DNA of 64,000 bases, taken from Planctomycetota bacterium. GTDB taxonomy: Bacteria > Planctomycetota > JAJSAM01 > JAJVHW01. The notes beneath the pieces were generated by a model. It worked only from the letters and a program-made list of their open reading frames with translations. It was not told the origin of the DNA and did not search any database. The stretch covers positions 1,280,001-1,344,000 of the forward strand of contig CBDFJG010000003.1 of NCBI GenBank assembly GCA_965248445.1, written 5' to 3'. A program made the translations under genes and the position numbers. Each line of letters starts with the position of its first letter. The stretch's first letter is position 1. Shown piece after piece: positions 49,375 through 63,206 of the stretch.

Positions 49375-49381
49375 TGTGCAG

Positions 49382-51784
49382 ATGAAGCAGAGCCTCCGCC
49401 TCACCCTCGCGCTCGTCCTTGCAAGCCTCCTGGTCGGCGTCCCGGACGCGGCCCATGGCGACATGAAGGAGCTCGGCAAGAAGCTCAAGAGCAAGGACGT
49501 GTCCGAGCGCCTCGAGGCGGTCGCCGACCTCAGGTCCGAGAAGGGTGAAGAGGTCACGAAGCTCCTGATCAGCGCCCTCGACGACAGGGACTGGGAGGTC
49601 ATGGAGGAAGCCGTCACGGCGCTCGGCGAGGTCGGTGGCGACGACGCGCCGGACGCCCTGGCGAAGATGGCGCTGACCGGTCCGGTGCGCCGGGTGCGCA
49701 TCGCCGCTGCGAGGGCGCTCGTCAAGACCGAGCCGTTCATCGGAGCGGAGGCGCTCTCGAAGAAGGTGTCGGGCAAGAACGCGGAGCGGGCGTGCGAGGC
49801 GCTCGCCATCATCGCGCTGGGCGCGCCGGACGCACGCGACGGCGCCGCACCGGGCATCCGCCGCGGGCTCAAGAACGCCGCGAGCGAGGTCAAACGCTCG
49901 GCCGCCCGCGGGCTGATCGCGCTGCCGTCCGACGAGCGGTCGGAAGCGCTGACGAAGCTGCTCGGCGACGAGGACGTAGCGGTCGTGACAGCAGTGATCG
50001 ACGGCGTGCGTGCCGCACCGGACATCGAGCACATCCAGCCGCTCATCGCGGCGATGCAGGAGAAGGACGTGCTCGACATCGTGGAGCGCCGGCTGCGGGC
50101 CGCGCTGCGCGACATGGTGGCGACTCAGGACACCGTCGAGATGGCGACCGAAGCCGCCGGGCCCGTCGCTGACGCACTCGGCTGGGCCGCCACACCGGAA
50201 GCCGCGGCGCGACTGACGCGCACAATCGGCTGGATCGCCCGCGATCCGGTGCAGGAGGGCATGACCGGCGAACTTCTCGAAGAGGCGAAGAAGCGGGAGC
50301 GTCTGGTGGATCCGCAGTGGGCGGTGGACGTTCTCGCGAGGGTGCTCGAGCACGACGACCCGGCGCCCCGCTCCGCTGCCGCCCACGCGCTGGCAGGGAT
50401 CCGCACCGACGCGGCACTGGACCTCGCAGCCGCGACGGCAACGGCGGATCAGGACCCCCGCGTGCGTCTGCACGCACTCCGCGCGGTGACCAAGAACCGC
50501 GGCGTGCTGCACGACGGCACCCGCACGCTGGCGTCCTCGCGCCTCGAGTACGACGACAGCGCGCGCGTCCGCGAGCACGCGGCCGTCGCCCTCGGCACGA
50601 AGGGCGCCCCCGGTGTCGTTCCGATCCTCGAGAAGGCACTCAAGGACTCGGACTGGTCGGTGCGCGTCTGCGCCGCCGTCTCCCTCGGCAAGACGCAGGA
50701 TCCGGACGCACTGGCACCCCTCACGGTCTGGCTCGAGAAGGAGAAGGACTGGCGGCACCGCGGTGCGGCGGTCATCGGTCTCGGACATCTGCAGATGCGC
50801 GAGGCCGTGCAGCACATCATCGCGTCGCTGGGACTCAAGGACACGGCGATCGCGCGCAGCGCTTACGAGATCCTGCGCCGTCTGACCGAGAAGGAGATCC
50901 CGCCGAGGGTGCCCGCGTGGCGCGACTGGTGGGAGGCCAACGGCAAGGACTACGAGTTCCTGGATCTCGAAGAGGAAGCGCGGAAGGCCAAAAAGTTCGG
51001 CTACGCGCCGGACCGGCGCGGCGTGTACGAGGGTCAGGACATCATCGTCCTGCAGAGCCGCGGCGACCACATCGAGCAATTGCTCGAGCGCATCGACATC
51101 GAGCACCGGCTGTCCCGCGCGGGCAGCGTCGAGAAGTCGGAACTGCACCCGTACGCCGTGTTCGTGTCCAACTGCACGGGCGAGATCACCTCCGAGGACG
51201 TCGAACGGTTGGCGTGGTTCGTACGCGTCGGCGGCTATCTGTTCTGCTCGTGCTGGGCGCTGAAGCACACGGCAGAGCTGGTTTACCCCGGCATGGTGCA
51301 GAAATTCGCGACCAAGGGCGGCCAGGTGCTCGACAACGTGTATTCGGAAGAGTGCCCCACCGACAGCCCGTACATCGATGGCGTGTTCGACGGCGTCACC
51401 CGCCCGATTTACGTGCTCTACGGTGCGCACCTGATCGAAGTACTCGATCCCGAGGGCGTCGAGGTGCTCATCGACAGCCCCGACTGCGCGACGCGCTGGG
51501 GCGGCGGCAACCTGGCGGCGTGGTTCGACGCGGGCCACGGCACGATCCTCGACTCCGCCAACCACTTCGACCTGCAGGGACTCGAGAAGGCGATGGGCGT
51601 CAAGGGCATCGAAGGCCGCAAGGCGTACGCCATGGACCACATGGGTCTCAGCTACGACGACGTGCGCGCGATCCCGGACAAGGTCTGGAAGAGCGGCACC
51701 AAGGCGAACAAGGAGGCCCGCGACATGTCGGCCTTCCGCCTCATCACCAACTTCGTGCGCCAGAAGCGGCGCGAGAATCGATAG
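49382..51784 (+). CDS. secreted HEAT-repeat protein with C-terminal class-I glutamine amidotransferase-like domain
   Basis: Signal peptide; HEAT/PBS repeats ('ALDDRDWEV', 'DSDWSVRVCAAVSLG'); C-terminal 'DHIEQLL...FVSNC...FVRVGGYLFCSCWAL...GHGTILDSANHF'. Confidence 0.75.
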   Translation: MKQSLRLTLALVLASLLVGVPDAAHGDMKELGKKLKSKDVSERLEAVADLRSEKGEEVTKLLISALDDRDWEVMEEAVTALGEVGGDDAPDALAKMALTGPVRRVRIAAARALVKTEPFIGAEALSKKVSGKNAERACEALAIIALGAPDARDGAAPGIRRGLKNAASEVKRSAARGLIALPSDERSEALTKLLGDEDVAVVTAVIDGVRAAPDIEHIQPLIAAMQEKDVLDIVERRLRAALRDMVATQDTVEMATEAAGPVADALGWAATPEAAARLTRTIGWIARDPVQEGMTGELLEEAKKRERLVDPQWAVDVLARVLEHDDPAPRSAAAHALAGIRTDAALDLAAATATADQDPRVRLHALRAVTKNRGVLHDGTRTLASSRLEYDDSARVREHAAVALGTKGAPGVVPILEKALKDSDWSVRVCAAVSLGKTQDPDALAPLTVWLEKEKDWRHRGAAVIGLGHLQMREAVQHIIASLGLKDTAIARSAYEILRRLTEKEIPPRVPAWRDWWEANGKDYEFLDLEEEARKAKKFGYAPDRRGVYEGQDIIVLQSRGDHIEQLLERIDIEHRLSRAGSVEKSELHPYAVFVSNCTGEITSEDVERLAWFVRVGGYLFCSCWALKHTAELVYPGMVQKFATKGGQVLDNVYSEECPTDSPYIDGVFDGVTRPIYVLYGAHLIEVLDPEGVEVLIDSPDCATRWGGGNLAAWFDAGHGTILDSANHFDLQGLEKAMGVKGIEGRKAYAMDHMGLSYDDVRAIPDKVWKSGTKANKEARDMSAFRLITNFVRQKRRENR

Positions 51785-51793
51785 GACCCCCTC

Positions 51794-52648
51794 ATGCGCC
51801 GCACAGCTCTGGCGCTCGCACTCGGCGCCATGATCGCGACTCCGGGATGCCTGAAGCTCAAGGACCGCACGATCGTGCTCCCCGACGGTTCCGGGAAGAT
51901 CGAGATGCGCGTCGGCTTCCCGAACTCCTCGATGAAGGAGATGCACAAGGTCTCGGAGGAGGAGAGCTTTGATCTGGCCGCGGAGCAGCTGAAGCAGATG
52001 CGCCGTGACTGGAAGGGGTTCAGCGCCTTCACGCGCCCGGTCAAGTCCGAGGACGGCGGCTGGACGTACGTGACGTTCGACGCCTACTTCGACGACCTGA
52101 ACGCGGTGCAGGTCTGGAAGGAAGACTTGACCACGGAGGAGCGCGTCCTGCAGAAGTCGTTCGAACTCGAGGCAATCGAGGGCGGCGGATTCGACCTCAC
52201 CTTCCGCCACCAGACGCTCGTGGACATCACGGCGAAGTTCGCGAAGCAGGCGGACGAGCGCAGCGGCGACATGTCCGAAGAGGATCGCCGCACGGCGAAG
52301 GTCCTGACCGACGCGATGCGCCTGGCGTTCGACGGGCTCGCACTCGACTTCGCGGTCGAGATGCCGGGCGACGTCACGCGGGCGACGGGTTTCTCGAACA
52401 CCACCACCGGTTCCGCGGCGCTGCACGTCACCCTCGACGACCTTCTCGACGAGAAGAAGGTGAAGAAGCTCGCCGAGGTGAAAGAGCTGACCGTTCGCTG
52501 CGGCCCCTCGAACTGGAAGAAGTCCGACATCGAGGACTTCAAGGAGGAGCTCGCGGACGCGAAGGCGGAGTGGAAGAAGCTCCTGGCCGAGGTCGAGGCC
52601 AAGGAGAAGTCCGACAAGGTTCCCGCCGGGGCCGGAGGCGGCAAGTAG
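51794..52648 (+). CDS. lipoprotein (LppM-like)
   Basis: Lipobox TPGC followed by 'DRTIVLPDGSG' and 'VEMPGDV...'. Confidence 0.7.
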   Translation: MRRTALALALGAMIATPGCLKLKDRTIVLPDGSGKIEMRVGFPNSSMKEMHKVSEEESFDLAAEQLKQMRRDWKGFSAFTRPVKSEDGGWTYVTFDAYFDDLNAVQVWKEDLTTEERVLQKSFELEAIEGGGFDLTFRHQTLVDITAKFAKQADERSGDMSEEDRRTAKVLTDAMRLAFDGLALDFAVEMPGDVTRATGFSNTTTGSAALHVTLDDLLDEKKVKKLAEVKELTVRCGPSNWKKSDIEDFKEELADAKAEWKKLLAEVEAKEKSDKVPAGAGGGK

Positions 52649-52674
52649 CCCCTCGGCGGAATTCCGAGATCGCC

Positions 52675-52703
52675 GCAAACCGCGGCCCCCCGTTTCGCGT
52701 CTA
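52675..52703 (+). promoter_or_regulatory. candidate ECF-type (auto)promoter
   Basis: GCAAAC-N17-CGTCTA (AAC in -35, CGT in -10), ending 9 nt before the sigma ATG; no SD before that ATG. Confidence 0.5.
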
Positions 52704-52712
52704 GGCCGGCAG

Positions 52713-53240
52713 ATGGAGTCCGGAGACGACCCCCTCACGGCCCGCTTCAAGGCGCTCGGCGAGCGCCTGATGGGCACGGCGTACTTCGCCGTGGGACATC
52801 GCGAAGACGCGCGTGAGGTCGTCCAGGAAGCGTTCGTCCGCTGCTGGCGGCACCGCAAGAAGGTGCCGGAGCTGCGCGACCTCGACGCCTGGATCTTCTC
52901 CGTGCTCCTGAACACGGCTCGGGACCGGCGGCGGCGCAATCGCGTCCGCCGCTCCGAGTCGCTGCCGACGGAGGACGCGATGCCACAGGCCACTGACAAT
53001 CCGGTCCGCCGCGCCGGCGCCCGCGAGGCGCTCGGACGTGTTCGGGCCGCGATCCACACGCTCCCCGAAGCGGAGCGTGAGGTGTTCCTGCTGCGCCAGA
53101 ACGGGGACGCGACGTACGAGCGCATCGCCGAACTGGTGGGCTGCCCCGTCGGAACCGCCAAGACGAGGATGCGCTCTGCACTGATCCGCTTGCGCCGGGC
53201 AATGGAGCCCGCGCGCGGTGCGGTCGGGCGGGGCGCCTGA
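52713..53240 (+). CDS. ECF RNA polymerase sigma factor
   Basis: Region 2 'EDAREVVQEAF...AWIFSVLLNTARD', region 4 'LPEAEREVFLLR...TYERIAELVGCPVGTAKTRMRSAL'. Confidence 0.93.
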   Translation: MESGDDPLTARFKALGERLMGTAYFAVGHREDAREVVQEAFVRCWRHRKKVPELRDLDAWIFSVLLNTARDRRRRNRVRRSESLPTEDAMPQATDNPVRRAGAREALGRVRAAIHTLPEAEREVFLLRQNGDATYERIAELVGCPVGTAKTRMRSALIRLRRAMEPARGAVGRGA

Positions 53241-53258
53241 CGCCCAGGAGGTCCGACG

Positions 53259-56200
53259 ATGACCACGGACCGCGACCGCGACGACCTGCTCTCTTACCTG
53301 TACGGCGCGCTGCCCGACGAGGAGCGCACCGTCCTGGAGAAGCGACTGGCTGACGACCCCGAACTGCGCGCACGGCTCGACGCCGCCCGCGCGGAGAAGG
53401 ATACGCTCGCCAAGGCCGCGGAGATCTCCGATCCGGGCGTGTCTCTTCGGCCCCCACGCGCCAAGGTGTTCACGATGCGCAAGTTCGGCATGGCCGCCGG
53501 CGTGCTGCTGGCGCTCGGACTGGGCTTCACCGGGTTCCGCGCATCGCACCGCGCCACCCTGGCCGGCGACAACCCGGTCCTCGTGGCCAAGGGTCCCGGC
53601 AGCTTCGTGCCCGGCACCCCCGCGGAGTACGAACTCCTGCTCACCGACGCAGACGGTGACGCAATCGACGGCACCGTCACGGTCCACGTCCTCGGCGCGG
53701 GGAACGAGATCCGCGCGAAGACGGACGCGACACTCGACAACGGCCGCGCGACAGTGCAGCTCGAACCCGAGACCGGCGACCCCGGCGAGCGGGTGCGCGT
53801 GCAGTTCGTCGCAACGACGAAGGACGGCGAACGCATCACACAGACTCTGCCGCTCAAGGACGGCACCCGCGTGGTCGCACGCGTCAGCACGGACAAGCCG
53901 CTCTACCGGCCCGGCGAGACCGTGCGCATCCGCAGCATCGCGCTCGAGGCGTTCCGCTTACAGCTCCCCGGCGACGTTCCCGTCAAGATGACGATGACGG
54001 ATCCACGCGGCGGCGTCGTGTTCGACCACGTGCTCGACACGCAGAACGGCGCCATCGCGTGGGAGCACGCGCTTCCGCGGGACGTGGCCGGCGGGACATA
54101 CACCGTCTCGGTCACCGGCACCAAGGACGACGGTCTCGTCGCACCGGCGAAGCGCACGTTCGAAGTGCGTTCGTACCGCGTGCCGCGCCTGCGCTTCGAC
54201 ATGGAACTCGATCGCGACACGTACGGACCCGGCGACGCGGGCACGGCCCAGCTCAGCGTCGAGCGCGCCGAGGGCGGCAGCCCCACCGGCGCGACCGCCG
54301 AGGCGGTGCTGCGCGTGGACGGCGAGGAGATCGCCCGCGAGACACTGACCGTCGGTGCGGACGGCGGCGTCGTGGTTCCGTTCACTCTTCCGATGCAGAT
54401 CGCCGAGGGGCGCGGCCAGCTGAGCGTCACCGTCGAGGACGGAGGCGTGGTCGAGACGACCGCCAAGACCGTTCCGATCGCGCTGGGCCGCCTGGACGTC
54501 GAGCTGTACCCTGAGGGCGGCGAGCTCGTCGCCGGTATCCCGTCGCGCGTGTACTTCCGCGCCCGCACCCCCGCCGGTGAGCCGGCCGACGTCGCGTTCG
54601 AGGTGCTCGACGGCGACGAGGTCGTCGCAGCGGCCAACGTCGACGTGCGCGGCATGGGAGTGTTCGAGCTGACCCCGCGTGACGGCGCGAACTACACGCT
54701 CGCGGCGATCTCGCCACTCGACGTGGACCTCGCGTGCGAGATCCCCGCCGTCCTGACGAGCGGAGCCGTGCTCCGCGCGCTCGACGAGGCGACGGCGGCC
54801 AAGGCGCCCATTCGCGTCAATCTGCAGGCCGCTGCGAGCGGCACGTATGCCGTCGAGGCCTGGTGCCGCGGCGGCCGTCTGGCGCGCATGCGCGTCGAGC
54901 TCGACCGGTTCCGTGATCGCGAGATCGAGATCCCGACGGCCTCCGAGGTCGGCGGCGTCATCCGCGTGACTGTCTTCGGTCCGGACGGCAACCCGCTCGC
55001 CGAGCGCCTCGTGACGCGTCAGCCGCCGCGCAGCCTCTCGCTGACGGCCGTGGCCGCGAAGCAGAAATACGCGCCGCGCGAGCGCGTCGAGGTCAAGGTC
55101 CGCGCATTCGGCCCGGACGGCCCCGTCGCGAACGCGATCCTGGGCGCAAGCGTCGTCGACGAGTCGGTGCTCGCGCTGGCGAACGACGAGGACACAGCTC
55201 CGATGCCGATGCACTTCCTGCTCGGCATGGAGGTGGATGAACTCGAGAAGACCGAGGTCTACGCCGAGGGTCCGGACGCGCAGCACGCAGTGGATCTGCT
55301 GCTCGGCGTGCAGGGCTGGCGCCGCTTCGGGTGGAAGAACGTCGATGAGTTCCTGGCAGCGCATCCCGAGGACGGCCTGCGGCTCGTGGCGGTCTCCGCC
55401 GACGCGCAGACCGTTGCCCGCGACAACCGAGCCGGTGCGGATCAGGCGGTCGCGTACGGCATGGAGAGGTTCGACGAACGCTCGATGGAGCGCGGCTGGG
55501 CCGGCGGCATCCTGCTGATCGTCATCGGCGGCGTGCTGCTCTCGATCCGGTCGCTCTGGCAGCGACGCATGCTGCCCGCGATCGTCGGCGTCGTACCGGC
55601 GCTCTTGCTGGCCGCCGCGTTCGCGTTCTCGCGGTCTGACATGCAGTACGCGATGGCGCCGGGCATGGACGCCCGCGTGGAGATGGAAGCCGGAGGATGG
55701 CCCGCCGACGCCGTCGCCATGGGCGGCGGGGCGGCGGGTGATCCGCTCGCGGACTGGCTCGGAGCCGACGGCGCCCCCGCGCCGCGACGGGCCGCGCCCG
55801 CGCTCGTCGAACCCAACGTGCTGCGCCTGGCCGACGCGGAAGCGAAGAAGAACGCCGACGCCCGCGTCGTCGGACTCGCCGATCTCGCCGGGAGGCTCCG
55901 CCGCGCCAAGCGCCCGATGGAGGGCGCCGAGAAGGAACTGCTCGACAAGTTCGCCGACATGGATCTCGAGATGGAGGAACTCCGCGTCATGAAGGACGCG
56001 AAGCAGATCCTCGTTCGCGAGTACGCGTACCAGGCGCAGAAGAACGACGGCACGCGCAGCGACTTCACCGAGGTCCTGTACTGGAACGCTCTCGTCATCA
56101 CCGACGAGAAGGGCGAAGCGACCTTCGCGTTCGACACGTCGGACTCGATCACTTCGTTCCGCGTTGCCGTGGACGGCCACGACGGAAAGGGAGCGCTCGG

Positions 56201-58130
56201 CGCGGCCGACTCGCTGTTCGAGAACCGCGTGCCGTTCTACGTAGAGCCGAAGTTCCCGGTGGAGCTGTCCGCCGGTGACGAGCTGTTCCTACCCGTCGTC
56301 GTCGCCAACGACACCGACGCACCTATGCCCGTGACACTCAGCATCGTGGCCGGCGACCCTCTGTTGCAGGTCCGCGGAGACGCGACCTTCACGACCGAGG
56401 CCGCGGCCGGTGCGCGCACGCGCATCCTGGTGCCGTTCACGGTCGCCCAGGGCACCGGTAACGGGACGATCACACTTCGCGCCGTGGCCGGCTCCGGACA
56501 CGACGACGTCACGATGCGCGCGATCCCGGTCGTGCCCCGCGGCTACCCGCGCACGGTTGCCAGGAGCGGCGTGATCGAGGAGCGAGACGGCACCGAGTTC
56601 ATGCTGCCCGCCGACCTGAACCCCGTGACGGTCACTGGCGCGCTGAAGCTCTATCCCTCCACTCTGGCGACACTCGTCGACGGCCTCGAAGGCATCCTGC
56701 GCGAGCCGAACGGCTGCTTCGAGCAGGCGTCGTCGTCCAACTACCCGAACGTGCTGGTCATGCGCTACCTTCAGGACCAGGGCGCGGCGGCCCCGGCCGT
56801 GGCGCGCCGGGCGCGCGATCTCATGAAGTCGGGCTACGCGAAGCTCGCCGGCTACGAGTGCAGTGAGCTCGGCTACGAGTGGTTCGGCGGTGATCCAGGC
56901 CACGAGGCGCTCAGCGCCTACGGACTCATGGAGTTCGTGGACATGCGCGCGGTCTTCGACGTCGACGAGGAGATGATCGGCCGCACGCGCAAGTGGCTGC
57001 TCGAGCGCCGCGACGGCGACGGCGGCTTCAGGCGCAATGCACGGGCCCTCGACTCCTTCGGCGCAGCGCCGGACGAGATCACGAACGCCTACATCACGTG
57101 GGCACTCACCGAGGCCGGCGAGAATGCCGAACTCGGCAAGGAACTGAACAAGCTGATCGCGGACGGCAAGACGAGCGAAGACCCCTACGTGGTCGGACTC
57201 GCCGCCAACGCCGCGCTCAACACCGAACACGCCGACAAGGGCGCACTGGTCAAGCGGCTGGCCGGCATGCAGCAGGCGGACGGACACTTCGACGGGAAGA
57301 CCACGTCGATCACGTCGAGCCGTGGCAGCAACCTGCACATCGAGACCACCTCGATCGCCGCGCTGGCGTTCACGAAGAGCGGCACGCACCTCGCCGACGG
57401 CGAGGAGGCGATTGCGTGGCTCCTCCAGCAGCGCAGCGGCGGCTCGTTCGGCACGACGCAGGCGACGATCATGGCGCTCCGCGCTCTGGTCACCCACGCG
57501 CAGAACGCACGCAAGACGTCGACGTCGCACGACGTGGCCGTCATCGTGAACGGCGAGCAGGTGGCCACCCGCCACGTGGCGGAAGGCTCCACCGGCGTCA
57601 TCCTGTTCGAGCGCACCGTCATCGACGCACTGCGCCCCGGCGAGAACACGATCGAGGTCACCGCCAGCGGCGACGAGACGCTGCCGTGGGCGCTCACGCT
57701 GTCGTACGCGACGGCGCTGCCCGCCAGCAGCCCGGACTGCCCCGTCACGGTCGCGACCTCACTCGACACCGACACGGCGGTCGAGGGCGACACCGTCGGC
57801 CTGCACGTCGAGCTGACGAACACGACCGCCGAGGGCATCCCGATGACACTCGCGCGCGTCGCGCTGCCGGCCGGTCTCGAGCCGCGCACCGAGCAGCTCG
57901 AGGAGCTCAAGAAGGCCGGCGACATCGACTTCTGGGAGACCCGCCCGCGCGAGATCACGCTCTATTACCGGGCGCTCGCACCGAGCGCGCAGAAGGTGCT
58001 CGATCTCGACCTGACCGCGGCGGTGCCCGGCAAGTTCGAGGGCCCCGCGTCCTCGGCGTACCTCTACTACGGCGACGACGCCAAGCAGTGGGCGGCGCCG
58101 CTCGGGATCACGATCCAGCCGCGGCGCTGA
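53259..58130 (+). CDS. alpha-2-macroglobulin family thioester protein with N-terminal anti-sigma-like domain and internal TM hairpin
   Basis: AGGAGG RBS; 'LLSYLYGALPDEERTVLEKRLADDPELRARL' then a TM; MG2 'STDKPLYRPGETV'; 'RSDFTEVLYWN...DSITSF'; thioester 'PNGCFEQ' (CFEQ at 56715-26); 'GSFGTTQATIMAL'; C-terminal 'A.VPG.F.GP.S.AYLYY'. Confidence 0.9.
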   Translation: MTTDRDRDDLLSYLYGALPDEERTVLEKRLADDPELRARLDAARAEKDTLAKAAEISDPGVSLRPPRAKVFTMRKFGMAAGVLLALGLGFTGFRASHRATLAGDNPVLVAKGPGSFVPGTPAEYELLLTDADGDAIDGTVTVHVLGAGNEIRAKTDATLDNGRATVQLEPETGDPGERVRVQFVATTKDGERITQTLPLKDGTRVVARVSTDKPLYRPGETVRIRSIALEAFRLQLPGDVPVKMTMTDPRGGVVFDHVLDTQNGAIAWEHALPRDVAGGTYTVSVTGTKDDGLVAPAKRTFEVRSYRVPRLRFDMELDRDTYGPGDAGTAQLSVERAEGGSPTGATAEAVLRVDGEEIARETLTVGADGGVVVPFTLPMQIAEGRGQLSVTVEDGGVVETTAKTVPIALGRLDVELYPEGGELVAGIPSRVYFRARTPAGEPADVAFEVLDGDEVVAAANVDVRGMGVFELTPRDGANYTLAAISPLDVDLACEIPAVLTSGAVLRALDEATAAKAPIRVNLQAAASGTYAVEAWCRGGRLARMRVELDRFRDREIEIPTASEVGGVIRVTVFGPDGNPLAERLVTRQPPRSLSLTAVAAKQKYAPRERVEVKVRAFGPDGPVANAILGASVVDESVLALANDEDTAPMPMHFLLGMEVDELEKTEVYAEGPDAQHAVDLLLGVQGWRRFGWKNVDEFLAAHPEDGLRLVAVSADAQTVARDNRAGADQAVAYGMERFDERSMERGWAGGILLIVIGGVLLSIRSLWQRRMLPAIVGVVPALLLAAAFAFSRSDMQYAMAPGMDARVEMEAGGWPADAVAMGGGAAGDPLADWLGADGAPAPRRAAPALVEPNVLRLADAEAKKNADARVVGLADLAGRLRRAKRPMEGAEKELLDKFADMDLEMEELRVMKDAKQILVREYAYQAQKNDGTRSDFTEVLYWNALVITDEKGEATFAFDTSDSITSFRVAVDGHDGKGALGAADSLFENRVPFYVEPKFPVELSAGDELFLPVVVANDTDAPMPVTLSIVAGDPLLQVRGDATFTTEAAAGARTRILVPFTVAQGTGNGTITLRAVAGSGHDDVTMRAIPVVPRGYPRTVARSGVIEERDGTEFMLPADLNPVTVTGALKLYPSTLATLVDGLEGILREPNGCFEQASSSNYPNVLVMRYLQDQGAAAPAVARRARDLMKSGYAKLAGYECSELGYEWFGGDPGHEALSAYGLMEFVDMRAVFDVDEEMIGRTRKWLLERRDGDGGFRRNARALDSFGAAPDEITNAYITWALTEAGENAELGKELNKLIADGKTSEDPYVVGLAANAALNTEHADKGALVKRLAGMQQADGHFDGKTTSITSSRGSNLHIETTSIAALAFTKSGTHLADGEEAIAWLLQQRSGGSFGTTQATIMALRALVTHAQNARKTSTSHDVAVIVNGEQVATRHVAEGSTGVILFERTVIDALRPGENTIEVTASGDETLPWALTLSYATALPASSPDCPVTVATSLDTDTAVEGDTVGLHVELTNTTAEGIPMTLARVALPAGLEPRTEQLEELKKAGDIDFWETRPREITLYYRALAPSAQKVLDLDLTAAVPGKFEGPASSAYLYYGDDAKQWAAPLGITIQPRR

Positions 58131-58175
58131 CGTCGTCGGCGATTGCGACGTGCATGGGCTGATCGCGCTTCAGCG
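57958..58175 (+). repeat. copy 1 of ~215-bp diverged direct repeat (intact A2M 3' end plus remnant of kinase 3' end)
   Basis: Aligns by eye to 58731..58945, e.g. shared GTGCCCGGCAAGTTCGAGGG, GGCGACGACGCCAAGCAGTGGGC and CTCGGGATCACGATCCAGCCGCGGCGCTGAC. Confidence 0.9.
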
Positions 58176-58613
58176 GATCGCGACATGCACCCGCACCCGA
58201 TCCGGCGCCACGTGGTGGTCGAAGTCGCCGCTGTACGTGCGATCGAGAGGTGCCTCCCAGATCTGCTGCCACGCCTGGATCAGCGTGTCCGGTTGCGGGC
58301 CGCTCACGTCGTGTACGGCGTAGCGCGCAGCAGGCACGGTCGTCGCCACGAGTCCTTCAGGCAGGTCGTCCACGTCCACGTCGTCCGCGACACGGCATCC
58401 CAGGAGCATCGTGTAGGGCTGCGTGTGGTCGCCCTCGTACTCGTAGTAGAGCGAGTAGAGGTCGTCGTTCACGCGGCCCGGGATCTGCGCCGCACCGCCG
58501 CCGCCGAAGAACGCGCCCCACAGCGCTCCGATCGGCGCCGGGTCTGCGTTGGACGCGCGGCAGGTGCGCCCGACGAGCACGAATCTGGGCAGGGACTCGA
58601 TCTCGTGCGACAT
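58170..58613 (-). CDS. GyrI-like small-molecule binding domain protein
   Basis: 'LVGRTCRASN...IGALWGAF...LYSLYYEYEGD...MLLGCRV...LPEGL...VPAARYAV...AWQQIW...RTYSGDFD'; GGAGG RBS. Confidence 0.88.
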   Translation of the reverse strand: MSHEIESLPRFVLVGRTCRASNADPAPIGALWGAFFGGGGAAQIPGRVNDDLYSLYYEYEGDHTQPYTMLLGCRVADDVDVDDLPEGLVATTVPAARYAVHDVSGPQPDTLIQAWQQIWEAPLDRTYSGDFDHHVAPDRVRVHVAIR

Positions 58614-58730
58614 GGCGGCTCCTCCCGTGACTGGTATCGGTCTGGACGCAGACATGCGAGCAGACGTGCGCGTCCAGCACCAGGTCCCGCTCGCCGGTAC
58701 GGGAATCCGTCGGCGTCTGGGCGCGCACGC

Positions 58731-58945
58731 CGCTCTACCACCGGTCCCTCGCTCCGAACGCGCGGAAGGTGCTCGATCCGGAGCTCCTGGCCGCGGCCGT
58801 GCCCGGCAAGTTCGAGGGTCCCGCGTCCTCGGCGTACCTACGGCGACGACGCCAAGCAGTGGGCCGCGCCCTCGGGATCACGATCCAGCCGCGGCGCTGA
58901 CATCCTCCGCGATCGCCCGGTGCATCGGCTGGTCGCGCATCAGCG
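58731..58945 (+). repeat. copy 2 of direct repeat (frameshifted A2M remnant plus intact kinase 3' end)
   Basis: The A2M-derived part carries indels (e.g. TACCTCTACTACGGC becomes TACCTACGGC); the distal part encodes the kinase C-terminus on the minus strand. Confidence 0.9.
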
Positions 58946-61900
58946 ACTCGCGGTACTCCGCGGGAGCGTTGTCGCGCAGGAACTGCAGCCGCCGCCACGC
59001 CTCGTCGAGGTGCTCGCGCTCGCCGGTGACGCGCCACATCAGGTGTTCCGCGTGCATGCGCACGCGGTAGCCCATCCTGTCGCGGTAGCGTTCGTGGGAT
59101 GCACGAGCCTCGCTCGCCACGCTCTCCTCGCCGGCCGCAGCCCGCAGCAGGAGCGAGATCGTGCTCTCGTTCGCCAGCCCACTCGCGTCGCCCAGTTCGT
59201 GCGCGCGCGCGAGGTGCGCGGCGGCTTCCTCCTCCCGCCCGAGCGCATTCAAGCAGTCGCCCAGCGCCTGCTCGGCGGCTGCCTCCAGGTCCTTCGCCCC
59301 GCACTCCCGCGCGATTTCGATCGCTTCAAGCGCACTCCGCTCCGCGTCGGCATACCGACCCTGATAGGTGCGTGCGATCGTCGTGCCCCCGAGCGCATGC
59401 GCGACGCCGCGGCGGTACGCCACGTCCTCGCTGAGCGCGATCTGACGCTCATGCATCTCGCAGGCCTCGTCGAAGCGTCCCATGACCGCTAGGGCGAGCG
59501 CGAGGTTGCCCAGGCCGATGGCCTCCCCGCGGCGGTAGCCGATCTCGCGGGCGAGCCGCAGCCGTTCGTCCTGCAGTTCCATCGACCGCGCGTACATGCC
59601 GGCCGCAGTGTAGCTGCCCGCCAGATTGCCGAGGGCGACGGCGGCGTAGCGCACGTCGCCGACCTCGCGTGAGATCGCCAACGCGCGCTCGTCCCACTCG
59701 AGCGCCGCCGTGAAGTCGCCGAGCGTCCACATCGCGACCCCCAGACCGCCGCAGGCCTTCGCCTCCAGCTTGCGATCGCCGATCTCTCGCGCGATCGCAA
59801 GCGCGGCGTGCTGATGCTGTGCGGCCGTCTCGTTGTCGCCCAGATAGCCCGATGCTGCGCCGAGGTGCCCCTCGATCGCGCTCTCGAGCCGCTGGTCACC
59901 CAGCTCCCGTGCGGCCTCGAGCGCCGACGCGAGAACCTCGATTGCCTCGGCCGGGCTGCCGCGCATGACGAGCGACCAGCCGCGCTGCGCGAGGATGTCC
60001 GTCGCCGACTTCCGGTCGCCCAGATCGTTCGCGAGTTGCAGCGCCTCGGCGAGCATGGCGTCTCGCTCATCGGTCCGCCCGAGGTGTTCGAGTGATGCGC
60101 TCACGCGGCGCTGGATGGGCAGCCGCGCCGCACCCTGCAGAGCCGTGCCGGCGCCCAGAGCACGGTGACCGAGTCGGGCGGCTTCGTCACGTGACCGCGG
60201 CTCCAGGTGCTCGAGCGCCGCGGTCAGATACGGCACCGCCCTGACGCCCGACTCGGCCTCCAGGAAGTGCGACGCCAGCTTCGCGGCGGTGGCTCCCCAA
60301 ACCTCCGCCGGGGTGACGGACTCCGCGAGCGCCCGGCGCTCGAGCGCATCTCCGAGCACTGCGTGGTACTCGCGACGCAGCGCCGGCGAGAGCCGCTCGT
60401 AGAGCAACTCCTGCACCTGGTGATGATCGAAGACGAACCGCGGACCTGCAGCATGGACCAGCGCGTGACGCTGCTCGATGCGCCCGAGCGCGCGCAACAC
60501 CGGGATGCGCGCCTGACCGAGCGCCTCGGTCACGAGCAGCGGATCGAACTCGAAGCCGCAGCATGCAGCGACGTCGAGAATCTCCTGATCGGACTCATCG
60601 AGTGCGGCGAGACGCGTCTCGAAGATGTCCTTCACGGACGCCGGCAGTTCGATTCGCTCGATGATCCCCGTGGTGGACCACGATCCGTCGTCGCCGCGGT
60701 GCAACAAGCCCGACTCCCGCAGCGTGCGGATGATCTCGAATACGAAGAAGGGATTGCCGTCCGACGTTCGGGCCAGTCGCCAGCCGAGTTCGTCGGCGAG
60801 CCGCTCCGAGTGGAACGCCTCGACCAGAAGCTCACGGAGGTCGCGCGGCCCGAGTCGCGAGAGAGTCACGCGGCTCACGTGCTGAAGGCGATCGAGTCCC
60901 GACAACCATCGCTCCGGCAGTCCCGGCCGCGTCGTTCCGAGTAACACGATGCGGTGCCCGCGCGCCCCGAGAGCCAGCGCCTGAAACAGCGCACGACCCT
61001 CCTGTGGCGCGAAGTGCAGGTCCTCCACCACGAGCACGACAGGTCGGATCCGCGCGAGCCCGCGAAGTGCCCCGACGACCACCGCCGCCAGCGAGTCCGG
61101 CGTCAACGGCGTGGCGTCGTCGGGCGGCGGCAGCCCGCGCACGAGCGCCGAGATGCTCCTCACCAGAGAGAGCGAGCCGGGAAGGAGTGCCGACAGCGAA
61201 CGCTCGACCGCGTCGGCGCCGAAGTGATCCCGCAGCGCTGAAACTACGGCGCCGTTCGCCATCGCCGCGCCGAACGGAGGATAGCCGCCGAAGAGCCAGT
61301 CGAACTCCGTCCCCGCGCGCTCGAGACGCAGAGCCAGTTCGTCCAGCAGACGGGACTTCCCGATACCCGGCTCGCCCTGCACGAGGACCACGCCCCCATC
61401 GCCACGTTGCGCCGCAGCGAATGCGGCGTCGAGTGCAGCGCTGGAATTGTCGCGGCCGTGCAACGCCGTCGCGGCGGGCGCGCGGCGACGGCGGGCCGCC
61501 AGCCGTTCACCGAGCCGCGCACGGCGCTGTGTCCACCACGCGCTCTCCTCGCCGTCATCGAACAGTCGGCACAGTTCCTCCGCCGTCTGCACGCGTTTGT
61601 CAGGGTCTTTCGCCAGGAGTGTGTGGACCACCTCCTCGAAGAACCGCGAGACGCCCGGGTTGATCTCGCCGAGGCGGCGCGGGACCGTGGTCAGGACGCT
61701 ACGGACGACCGTCGCGACGTCGTCCCCGCGAAACAGGTGGGTACCCGACGAGAGCTCATAGAGGACGATCCCCAGGGCGTGGAGATCGGCGCGCCCGTCC
61801 ACGGCCTGCTCCGCCGAGAACTGCTCGGGCGATGCGTAGTGGAGCGACCCGACGAACGCGCCGGTCCGCGAGAGTTCGTGCGTCGCATCGATGACGCGCG

Positions 61901-62564
61901 CGACTCCGAGGTCGAGCAGCTTGACGGTGTGATCGGGTGTCACCAGCACATTGGCCGGCTTGACCTCGCGGTGCACCGCGCCCGCCGCGTGGATCGCACC
62001 CAGAGCGGATGCGATGTCGCGCCCGAGCTGACGGCAGAGTTCCTCGGGCACCTGCCCGAGTTCCTCCGACAGCGACTGCAGCGGCTGGCCTTCGACGTAC
62101 TCCATGACCAGGAACGGAGCGTGTGCATCGCCCTCATCGGCCCGCGCATCGAGCACGCGCACGACGCCGGGATGCTGCACACCGGCGCCGATTTGCGCCT
62201 CGCGCAGAAAGCGGTCCCTGTGCGTGCCGGTCCTCACCAGGTGCGGATGCAGGAGCTTGATTGCGACCACCTCCCCGCCCCCGGTGGGCTGGGCGCGGAA
62301 CACGGCGCCCATGCCGCCTTCACCGATCGGCTCGAGGAGCTGGTAGCCCTCGACTTCCGTCGGCGTCGCAGACGGTGCGTCGGACGCGTCCTCGGAGAGC
62401 ACGGCCGACTCGGAGTCGTGGTGGCGCAGCAGTTCTTCGACCTCGGCGCGCAGGATTGCATCGCCCGAGCACGCCGTGTCGAGCGCGCCGGCCCGGTCGG
62501 CAGCCGAGACCCCCCGCAAGGCCTCGAACACTTCGGCCATGCGCCGAAAGCGGTCGTCGCTCAC
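58878..62564 (-). CDS. Hanks-type Ser/Thr kinase - AAA ATPase - TPR protein (catalytic loop HRE)
   Basis: 'IGEGGMGAVF', 'VAIK', 'HREVKPANV', 'DLG', 'GSLHYASPEQ'; Walker A 'GEPGIGKS', 'VVEDLH', 'GNPFF'; C-terminal TPRs; GTG overlaps the ECF stop. Confidence 0.9.
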   Translation of the reverse strand: MSDDRFRRMAEVFEALRGVSAADRAGALDTACSGDAILRAEVEELLRHHDSESAVLSEDASDAPSATPTEVEGYQLLEPIGEGGMGAVFRAQPTGGGEVVAIKLLHPHLVRTGTHRDRFLREAQIGAGVQHPGVVRVLDARADEGDAHAPFLVMEYVEGQPLQSLSEELGQVPEELCRQLGRDIASALGAIHAAGAVHREVKPANVLVTPDHTVKLLDLGVARVIDATHELSRTGAFVGSLHYASPEQFSAEQAVDGRADLHALGIVLYELSSGTHLFRGDDVATVVRSVLTTVPRRLGEINPGVSRFFEEVVHTLLAKDPDKRVQTAEELCRLFDDGEESAWWTQRRARLGERLAARRRRAPAATALHGRDNSSAALDAAFAAAQRGDGGVVLVQGEPGIGKSRLLDELALRLERAGTEFDWLFGGYPPFGAAMANGAVVSALRDHFGADAVERSLSALLPGSLSLVRSISALVRGLPPPDDATPLTPDSLAAVVVGALRGLARIRPVVLVVEDLHFAPQEGRALFQALALGARGHRIVLLGTTRPGLPERWLSGLDRLQHVSRVTLSRLGPRDLRELLVEAFHSERLADELGWRLARTSDGNPFFVFEIIRTLRESGLLHRGDDGSWSTTGIIERIELPASVKDIFETRLAALDESDQEILDVAACCGFEFDPLLVTEALGQARIPVLRALGRIEQRHALVHAAGPRFVFDHHQVQELLYERLSPALRREYHAVLGDALERRALAESVTPAEVWGATAAKLASHFLEAESGVRAVPYLTAALEHLEPRSRDEAARLGHRALGAGTALQGAARLPIQRRVSASLEHLGRTDERDAMLAEALQLANDLGDRKSATDILAQRGWSLVMRGSPAEAIEVLASALEAARELGDQRLESAIEGHLGAASGYLGDNETAAQHQHAALAIAREIGDRKLEAKACGGLGVAMWTLGDFTAALEWDERALAISREVGDVRYAAVALGNLAGSYTAAGMYARSMELQDERLRLAREIGYRRGEAIGLGNLALALAVMGRFDEACEMHERQIALSEDVAYRRGVAHALGGTTIARTYQGRYADAERSALEAIEIARECGAKDLEAAAEQALGDCLNALGREEEAAAHLARAHELGDASGLANESTISLLLRAAAGEESVASEARASHERYRDRMGYRVRMHAEHLMWRVTGEREHLDEAWRRLQFLRDNAPAEYRESLMRDQPMHRAIAEDVSAAAGS

Positions 62565-63139
62565 GCGTCCGGGCCCGCGCCCAGCTCGCGGCGCAGCCAA
62601 GCACGCGCCATGTACCAGTCCGCCTCGACGGTCTTTCGGGCGATGCCGACGACGTCGGCGGTCTCCTCCATCGTGAGCCCCCCGAAGAACCTCAGTTCCA
62701 CGACCCGGGCCTTGCGCGCGTCACTCTCGGCAAGGCGCTCCATGGCGGCGTGCAGATCGAGCACATCCAGCCCGCGCTGCTCCTGCGCGTCGAGCACCCC
62801 GTCGAGAGTCACTCGCACGCGGTCACCGCCTCGCTTCAGCGCCCCCCGTGTGCGCGCGTGGTCAACGAGGATCTGTCGCATGAGACGTGCTGCAATTCCG
62901 AGGAAGTGCCCGCGGCCCTGGATGTCCGGCGGGGCTCCGCCGAGCAGTCGCAGGTACGCTTCGTGAATGAGAGCCGTGGCCTGCAGCGTGTGTCCGACTC
63001 TCTCGCGGCGCAGGTAGCCGTCGGCCAGCCGGCGCAACTCCGCGTACAGGTGCGTGGTCAGTTCGCTGGTGGCCGACTCGTCGCCGAGCCTGGCACGATC
63101 CAGGATCTCCCTCGTGAGCGAGGGCCGCGCTTCCGACAT
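62561..63139 (-). CDS. ECF sigma factor of the kinase-associated (ECF43-like) type
   Basis: 'YAELRRLA...HTLQATALIHEAYLRL...HFLGIAARLMRQILVDHAR...KRGG...VVELRFFGGLT..ETA...DWYMARAWL'. Confidence 0.93.
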   Translation of the reverse strand: MSEARPSLTREILDRARLGDESATSELTTHLYAELRRLADGYLRRERVGHTLQATALIHEAYLRLLGGAPPDIQGRGHFLGIAARLMRQILVDHARTRGALKRGGDRVRVTLDGVLDAQEQRGLDVLDLHAAMERLAESDARKARVVELRFFGGLTMEETADVVGIARKTVEADWYMARAWLRRELGAGPDA

Positions 63140-63157
63140 CGTTCGCCTTTCACTCCC

Positions 63158-63186
63158 CGCGCCCCAGTCTCCCAGACCGGGGCGCG
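63158..63186 (-). terminator. GC-rich hairpin between the upstream gene and the ECF gene
   Basis: Minus strand CGCGCCCCGGTCT-GGG-AGACTGGGGCGCG, a 13-bp stem with one G-T pair; no U tract. Confidence 0.35.
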
Positions 63187-63206
63187 AGAGCAAACGGCTC
63201 CAGGTT

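Follow-up and report, generated by a model that had tools for sequence, protein, structure and literature searches.

A conserved planctomycete ECF sigma factor gene paired with an anti-sigma/thioester macroglobulin fusion: a candidate protease sensor

The membrane-bound class I anti-sigma factors RseA, RsiW, RskA and RslA are encoded at position +1 of their extracytoplasmic function (ECF) sigma factor gene and carry an N-terminal helical domain with or without an HxxxCxxC zinc motif. A comparable arrangement was found in a 64,000-nucleotide (nt) stretch of a Planctomycetota genome (assembly GCA_965248445.1, contig CBDFJG010000003.1, positions 1,280,001 to 1,344,000; hereafter the window), where an ECF gene is followed by a gene for an anti-sigma/thioester macroglobulin fusion. 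As in class I anti-sigma factors, an Ala-Ala pair is found in a transmembrane (TM) helix and the modelled contacts reach both sigma4 and sigma2 (cf. PMC7406223, in part). Unlike RseA, RsiW, RskA and RslA, the fusion has a 1500-residue thioester macroglobulin as its sensor, three TM helices and a modelled interface dominated by sigma4; and whereas class I domains are expected to have four helices, the first on sigma4 and the last on sigma2, the window domain was modelled with three.

The sensor half resembles type I bacterial alpha-2-macroglobulins (A2M; E. coli YfhM/ECAM, Salmonella A2M) in being membrane-anchored and in its CxEQ thioester, bait and MG/CUB/TED layout (MG, macroglobulin domain; TED, thioester domain), but it has no lipobox and apparently lacks the extra N-terminal MG pair of YfhM-type proteins, for which no regulatory domain has been described. 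Unlike in YfhM-type operons, pbpC was not a conserved neighbour, and no PBP1c (TIGR02073) above the cut-off was found in the 92% complete source genome. The best solved matches, animal A2M, A2ML1, CD109, TEP1 and C3/C4, share the alpha'NT Arg/Phe pair, with scores that are no phylogeny; in contrast to these animal proteins, the fusion is bacterial and predicted to be polytopic, a membrane hairpin separating the linker from the bait and the anti-sigma head lying in the cytoplasm. An anti-sigma head joined to a large outside sensor is also found in RsgI/SigI of Clostridium thermocellum and in the vWA-DUF3520 anti-sigmas of ECF226 and ECF289, and release of RsgI by RseP and ClpXP has been shown (PMC12203970, in part). 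Unlike the fusion, those proteins are single-pass, with a different sensor and no covalent trap. The parts are known; their combination is apparently undescribed. A full-text literature search returned no description of the fusion or of a sigma4 product nested in an ECF gene, although Wiegand 2020, which reportedly classified about 6000 planctomycete ECFs, or Budd 2004 could mention the pair. The word 'macroglobulin' is absent from the main text and part of the supplement of PMC7826278, the remainder of which could mention the pair, and the available part of the Casas-Pastor 2021 ECF-group supplement contained 0 matches to 'A2M' and Planctomycetes passages without this pair.

The features on which the pair rests are as follows.
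52713-53240, plus strand: ECF sigma factor gene, 175 residues; sigma2 at residues 13-77 and sigma4 at residues 109-161 (Pfam).
53259-58130, plus strand: anti-sigma/thioester macroglobulin fusion gene, 1623 residues, predicted three-pass membrane protein.
53268-53423, plus strand: class-I-like anti-sigma domain, residues 4-55, three helices, zinc ligands absent in this copy.
52674-52703, plus strand: conserved promoter, -35 AAACC at 52677-52681, 16 nt, -10 CGTCT at 52698-52702.
53246-53252, plus strand: strong Shine-Dalgarno (SD) sequence of the macroglobulin gene, AGGAGGT, -11 kcal/mol.

The fused pair is real and conserved, and represents an apparently undescribed variant of transmembrane signalling by ECFs. 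The upstream gene encodes an ECF: PF04542 and PF08281 exceeded their cut-offs, TIGR02937 scored 78.9 against 42.9, and sigma2 and sigma4 were the only sigma regions present. The 18-nt spacing between the genes, reported in an initial annotation of this DNA, was confirmed from the open reading frame coordinates; short-read contigs from two runs of one sample were identical over the locus, with zero differences, and the fusion is single-copy in the source genome. A survey for such pairs, proposed in the same annotation, revealed a conserved Planctomycetota module whose linkage is seen from both genes. Altogether 218 macroglobulin homologues were found, and the 120 listed comprised 65 with the anti-sigma domain, 50 without it and 5 truncated, domain presence being called with a profile derived from the group's own members. 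An intact ECF of the same clade lay directly upstream in 46/47 domain-bearing loci with at least 750 nt of upstream sequence available, the ECF copy being broken in the exception (L061), and the same ECF was also present at 2/4 domain-bearing loci on contig edges. Among the 44 evaluable loci without a match to the domain profile, a count from which 21 N-terminally cut rows had been dropped, an ECF lay within 900 nt in 4, and L138 overlaps another. Four of these five ECF-linked loci carry a different anti-sigma-like head (L080, L106, L114, L138), and in the fifth, L029, a separate gene, itself a candidate anti-sigma, stands between those for the ECF and the macroglobulin. Conversely, when the ECF clade was taken as the starting point, 62/80 loci had the fusion downstream and 2 a broken fusion; the others showed the domain but no visible macroglobulin in the flanking sequence (8) or no domain (8, 4 of them at contig ends), and 9/80 repeat earlier loci. 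Three database proteins (P0182, P0189, P0232) are single-chain fusions of sigma, anti-sigma domain, TM and MG.

The pair was present in 5/7 genomes of the same family, end-to-end matches were obtained in at least 21 of 401 genomes of the phylum, and the named relatives of the fused type were nearly all Planctomycetota. A scan of contigs with the single protein found no relative; an alignment search did find them. No third gene was widely conserved beside the pair. Cultured carriers exist (Stieleria sedimenti, Saltatorellus ferox Poly30), so the system is directly testable. In trees, two well supported domain-less clades were nested in a paraphyletic fused group, deep nodes being weak, and re-fusion and an exchange of ECF and domain in Gemmata were each seen at least once; the tree bearing on a single origin or two losses of domain plus hairpin used 54 of 203 rows and a long-branch outgroup, with a support of 79.

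Some loci depart from the two-gene form. L029 (665-6802, minus strand) is an unfused three-gene version consisting of ECF, HxxxCxxC membrane protein and macroglobulin with bait hairpin; the middle gene is a candidate by motif only, because it has HxxxCxxC but no Pfam or domain-profile match. In L048 the sigma2 half runs straight into the mid-macroglobulin, apparently through deletion or misassembly, and P0232 (1060 residues) and P0189 gave no match to the thioester half.

The ECF-like promoter of the initial annotation stood in part: GCAAAC (52675-52680) and CGTCTA (52698-52703) are present, but the -35 element is better given as AA(A/T)C(C/T), with a spacer of 15-16 nt to CGTCT. A matrix of this form exceeded 12 bits in 46/48 orthologous upstream regions, the same ones on which it was trained, versus 0/144 shuffles, and did so in 54/70 held-out upstream regions. 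The sigma ATG lies 10 nt after CGTCT, so the mRNA would be nearly leaderless, and a scan of the locus for sigma-70 promoters found none. Autoregulation is the usual reading of such a promoter and is established for many ECF groups; the promoter is probably autoregulated here as well.

The N-terminal string quoted in the initial annotation is present in the macroglobulin protein, and its assignment as an anti-sigma domain is now well supported by the gene linkage, the zinc motif in relatives, the single-chain fusions, a complex model and weak NCBIfam matches. The family search proposed there gave matches to two NCBIfam anti-sigma models (NF052375, E 2.4e-6; PRK13920, E 9e-6), both below their cut-offs, and RskA_N was matched in 2/48 relatives. 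The reported lack of Cys/His ligands also held: HxxxCxxC is absent from the window copy and present in 19/64 of the relatives' main-type domains, and a mixture of zinc and zinc-free members within one group is normal for class I anti-sigma domains (PMC7406223, in part). An AlphaFold2 model of residues 1-1100 (pLDDT 85, 69 sequences) placed three helices at residues 4-55, the last of which comprises 22 residues according to DSSP. Modelled with ESMFold2, the complex of sigma factor and N-terminal domain scored 0.84 versus 0.00 for the best of three controls, with runs agreeing in at least 96% of contacts and a partner pLDDT of at least 87; the mark applied was reached by 116/157 solved complexes and 2/215 mismatched pairs, an approximate calibration in which our own alignments were used. 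Residues 7-19 and 46-58 of the anti-sigma domain were placed on sigma4, with some sigma2 contacts. A PDB sequence search with the domain profile retrieved RslA (3hug_B, E 0.008) and RskA (4nqw_B, E 3.2), weak evidence because designed helical proteins ranked above RslA. Database labels of fusion members read 'zf-HC2 domain-containing' or 'MG2 domain-containing'.

Several results count against an anti-sigma function. The domain of the window protein falls below every family cut-off, zf-HC2 was matched in just 6/48 relatives, and a Foldseek search with the low-confidence N-terminal model predicted from the single sequence (pLDDT 61) found no match; moreover, the success of the complex model may reflect likeness, since sigma/anti-sigma complexes have already been solved. 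Weak family scores would also suit a vestigial domain or structural anchor, with the ECF merely driving expression of a membrane-bound trap, as would the existence of domain-less relatives with signal or lipoprotein N-termini (38/50 lipobox-like). However, conservation of the domain matches that of the MG core (0.40 and 0.41, respectively), some relatives have the zinc motif, the domain-less forms mostly lose their ECF neighbour and the complex model passes, which makes such a relic very improbable. In our view the N-terminal domain is very probably the anti-sigma factor for this ECF.

The membrane-spanning segments are listed here.
53484-53537, plus strand: TM1, residues 76-93; conserved Ala79-Ala80, candidate cryptic ClpXP degron.
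55500-55628, plus strand: TM2, basic loop and TM3, a hairpin before the bait; TM2 residues 748-766, TM3 residues 772-790.

A single TM segment rather than a lipoprotein signal had been noted initially. No lipobox was indeed found in residues 1-200, but two further helices had been missed, with Kyte-Doolittle hydrophobicities (2.1 and 2.4 for TM2 and TM3) stronger than that of TM1 (1.5). Two hydrophobic stretches between linker and bait occur in 63/65 domain-bearing proteins, and at least one in 64/65; among the 50 domain-less homologues two stretches were found in 0 and one stretch in 1. The loop of the hairpin has more K/R than D/E in 58/59, placing it in the cytoplasm by the positive-inside rule, and the AlphaFold2 model shows a long helix at 724-767, a helix at 771-791 and disorder at 794-917. 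The fusion is thus very likely a three-pass membrane protein. An Ala-Ala pair occurs early in TM1 in 51/60, versus 17/60 in TM2 and 24/60 in TM3, and the source genome encodes peptidase M50 genes and clpX; XAA motifs in anti-sigma TM helices serve as ClpXP degrons once RseP has cut (PMC12203970, in part).

For the main clade, the idea that the macroglobulin gene has a conserved second start upstream of TM1 was rejected (13/51, scattered; -3.9 kcal/mol at the window site). In L080 and L114, and at protein level in P0044 and P0049, all with other anti-sigma heads, an SD with ATG, or a Met, stands just before TM1 and may mark where an earlier, secreted form began. The distant macroglobulins L024 and L025 have four to six hydrophobic helices at the bait position in addition to an N-terminal anchor.

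The extracytoplasmic part comprises the following elements.
53571-55424, plus strand: extracytoplasmic MG domains and linker region, residues 105-722.
55638-56009, plus strand: bait-position region, disordered and hypervariable, residues 794-917; pLDDT mostly below 50, 11% identity.
56055-56066, plus strand: Arg933 and Phe936, motif match to alpha'NT R732/F735 of human A2M.
56664-57491, plus strand: thioester domain, CFEQ at 56715-56726 (residues 1153-1156).
57726-58127, plus strand: C-terminal MG domain, in which Met1529 and Tyr1601/1603/1604 are conserved.

The MG domains and intact CFEQ thioester described initially were verified (Pfam MG2, A2M_BRD, A2M, TED and bMG10), and the layout is that of the A2M superfamily, with MG domains, linker, bait inside MG6, CUB, TED and C-terminal MG; residues 1101-1623 lie outside the folded model and were judged by sequence. 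Cys1153, Gln1156 and the alpha'NT-like Arg933 are invariant in 46/46 and Phe936 is kept in 45/46. Conservation was lowest in the bait stretch (0.11) and highest in the thioester domain (0.55). In the alignment with human A2M, Asp1265 stands opposite an Asn; since the catalytic His of C3 occupies this site, capture of amines is the likelier chemistry. In human A2M, retraction of the R732/F735 plug triggers collapse (PMC9352918, in part). A reactive thioester trap is predicted with good confidence. Scores against solved structures were 252 bits for human A2M, 229 for CD109 and 222 for TEP1 versus 94-97 for the E. coli and Salmonella A2Ms, and the top Foldseek matches of the macroglobulin model were C3, CD109 and A2ML1; judged from sequence, the nearest relatives of known structure are the A2M/CD109/TEP proteins of animals and not YfhM. 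Outside the thioester, Cys536 (54864-54866; 38/46) and Cys1201 (56859-56861; 43/46) are conserved.

A further element was found within the sigma gene itself.
52970-52982, plus strand: internal SD GGAGG (52970-52974) and in-frame ATG at 52980 (Met90), in the sigma2-sigma4 linker.
52980-53240, plus strand: predicted sigma4-only product, 86 residues, from sequence prediction and interface model.

An in-frame start with an SD of -3.5 kcal/mol or stronger is present in the sigma2-sigma4 linker of 46/48 genes (36 ATG, 7 GTG, 3 TTG), compared with at most 16/48 in non-overlapping control windows of 7 codons; it passed a strict test in 43/71 held-out loci. The 16S tail is intact in the source genome. 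A start codon stands at the Met90 column in 53/84 representatives below 75% identity, and these 53 genes have a mean SD of -8.2 kcal/mol versus -5.8 expected by synonymous recoding, 45/53 lying above the median. Because this excess is measured over synonymous recoding, selection acts on the DNA and not on the protein alone. In 66/89, no more than 20 nt separate the -10 element from the first sigma start, and the internal SD is the stronger one in 69/78. The 86-residue product corresponds to sigma4 and holds 22/32 modelled interface residues and all 25 of the lowest-error pairs. A short sigma4-only product is probably made, and we prefer to read it as titrating the anti-sigma domain; it could alternatively stabilise that domain, or compete at the -35 element or on the polymerase.

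It is rather unlikely that no functional short protein exists and that the acidic linker residues and Met form a sigma-finger motif at the protein level, or that the site loads ribosomes which protect the mRNA. ECF linkers do act like region 3.2 (PMC7826278, in part), Glu/Asp codons mimic an SD, and the internal start is missing from many divergent members: 28/71 held-out loci fail the strict test, and among 50%-identity representatives ranked by falling score a Met was found in the window in 17/41, 6/35, 6/28 and 3/11, a survey in which 35/150 had no anchor and GTG/TTG are invisible in protein sequences. These counts tell against a universal nested start. Conversely, the SD excess is confined to genes with the start codon, with none in the 29 genes lacking it (16/29) or comparable in eight shifted controls (at most 32/53); Val at the Met90 column is encoded by GTG in 7/8 and Leu is rare (2/84), and just 4/37 other sigma genes of the source genome have an internal start with an SD, in a wider window. 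Separate or shortened sigma parts act in regulation in the sigma-mimic PhyR and in the SigE and SigR isoforms. SigO-RsoA, a split sigma, is likewise an example of separate sigma parts in regulation (PMC7826278, in part). Unlike in any of these, the sigma4-only chain predicted here would be translated from a start inside an ECF gene that is itself intact.

Combined, the two genes suggest a self-regulating protease sensor. The 1623-residue protein would sit in the cytoplasmic membrane via its three helices, with the anti-sigma domain inside, predicted to hold the ECF sigma, and the macroglobulin body, bait and thioester domain outside according to the predicted topology. A protease cutting the bait would cause retraction of the alpha'NT plug and its own capture by the thioester, as established for the family. 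The collapsed, protease-bearing protein would then be cut near or in TM1, either because the tethered protease or one of the host clips it next to the membrane or because the hairpin unshields TM1. An RseP-type cut would follow, and the freed fragment ending in Ala-Ala would be degraded by ClpXP. The released sigma would transcribe its own promoter, conserved as it is, and so replace the spent trap, and the nested-start sigma4-only protein may compete for the anti-sigma domain and set the threshold. The intramembrane/ClpXP step is supported by the Ala-Ala in TM1, the RsgI-type precedent and the presence of M50 and ClpX in the genome. We lean modestly towards this chain as a whole, and with similar reserve towards protease cleavage as the signal.

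The weak link of the mechanism is the route from a cut after TM3 to TM1. A simple site-1 cut is impossible because the bait follows TM3, and about 650 extracellular residues stay on TM1. Further observations tell against the sensor as drawn, in addition to the extra step that these residues require between bait cut and TM1. The genome promoter scan was not discriminating and yielded no regulon (234 sites versus 144 in the shuffled genome at 14 bits), its count being inflated by a repeat. Some fusions have no hairpin (P0044, P0049, L080, L138), and Ala-Ala is frequent in GC-rich TM helices. The relatives are not independent, as one or two joint losses of domain and hairpin may account for the forms lacking both; with domain-less clades nested in the fused group, the co-occurrence counts of domain, hairpin and ECF rest on few events. 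The repeat, with dozens of copies in the source genome that match the promoter matrix, is probably an insertion-sequence end.

Two other readings keep a true anti-sigma factor. Instead of a foreign protease, the input could be envelope stress, a bound ligand or thioester-breaking amines, or the macroglobulin body could be the substrate of a dedicated host protease: the linkage in both directions and the complex model hold for any signal, other ECF groups (ECF226, ECF289) have anti-sigmas with large vWA/DUF3520 ectodomains (PMC7826278, in part), and some sigma loci carry the same anti-sigma domain on other ectodomains (L192, L203). We consider a different input improbable, though a serious competitor, because the full trap apparatus is kept (thioester, alpha'NT Arg/Phe, C-terminal Met and Tyr, long variable bait); in addition, methylamine alone produced no large change in Salmonella A2M (PMC4498604, in part). 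Less probable still is a consumption gauge, in which bait cleavage carries no signal of its own and membrane quality-control proteases clear entire molecules of spent or misfolded trap, slowly freeing sigma to refill the pool. Such a gauge would agree with the operon being the sole evident promoter target and with a TM1 ectodomain that is not shortened by bait cleavage, whereas the Ala-Ala conserved where TM1 begins suits a defined cut within the membrane.

The protease sensor, which we continue to favour, can be extended tentatively, and with somewhat less than even confidence, to a bacterial complement-like receptor: any intruding protease would elicit covalent capture and transcription in one three-pass molecule, the ECF gene would encode a nested sigma4-only anti-anti-sigma decoy that tunes the switch, and the fused form may be ancestral to the family's secreted bacterial forms, which resemble animal A2M more than YfhM. 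If true, bacterial macroglobulins would have a signalling role, as a broad-specificity protease sensor wired to transcription, and a bait swap could yield a programmable protease reporter. For the superfamily, the membrane hairpin next to the bait represents a new architecture, and the nested sigma4 product, if real, would be a new mode of ECF regulation.

The surroundings of the pair in the window contain additional features. Upstream, 49376-52648 (plus strand) encodes a secreted HEAT-repeat protein (802 residues) and a probable lipoprotein (284 residues), not conserved beside the pair. Downstream, at 58878-63193 (minus strand), another, separate ECF (Sigma70_ECF) precedes a kinase-AAA-TPR protein of about 1240 residues, of the planctomycete ECF/kinase type. 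The 3' end of the macroglobulin gene, with the bases after it (57958-58182), recurs at 58731-58952 (plus strand) as a frameshifted 228-nt copy of 85% identity; the two copies flank a GyrI-like/Cass2 gene (58170-58655, minus strand), and the duplicate is also seen in the short-read contigs.

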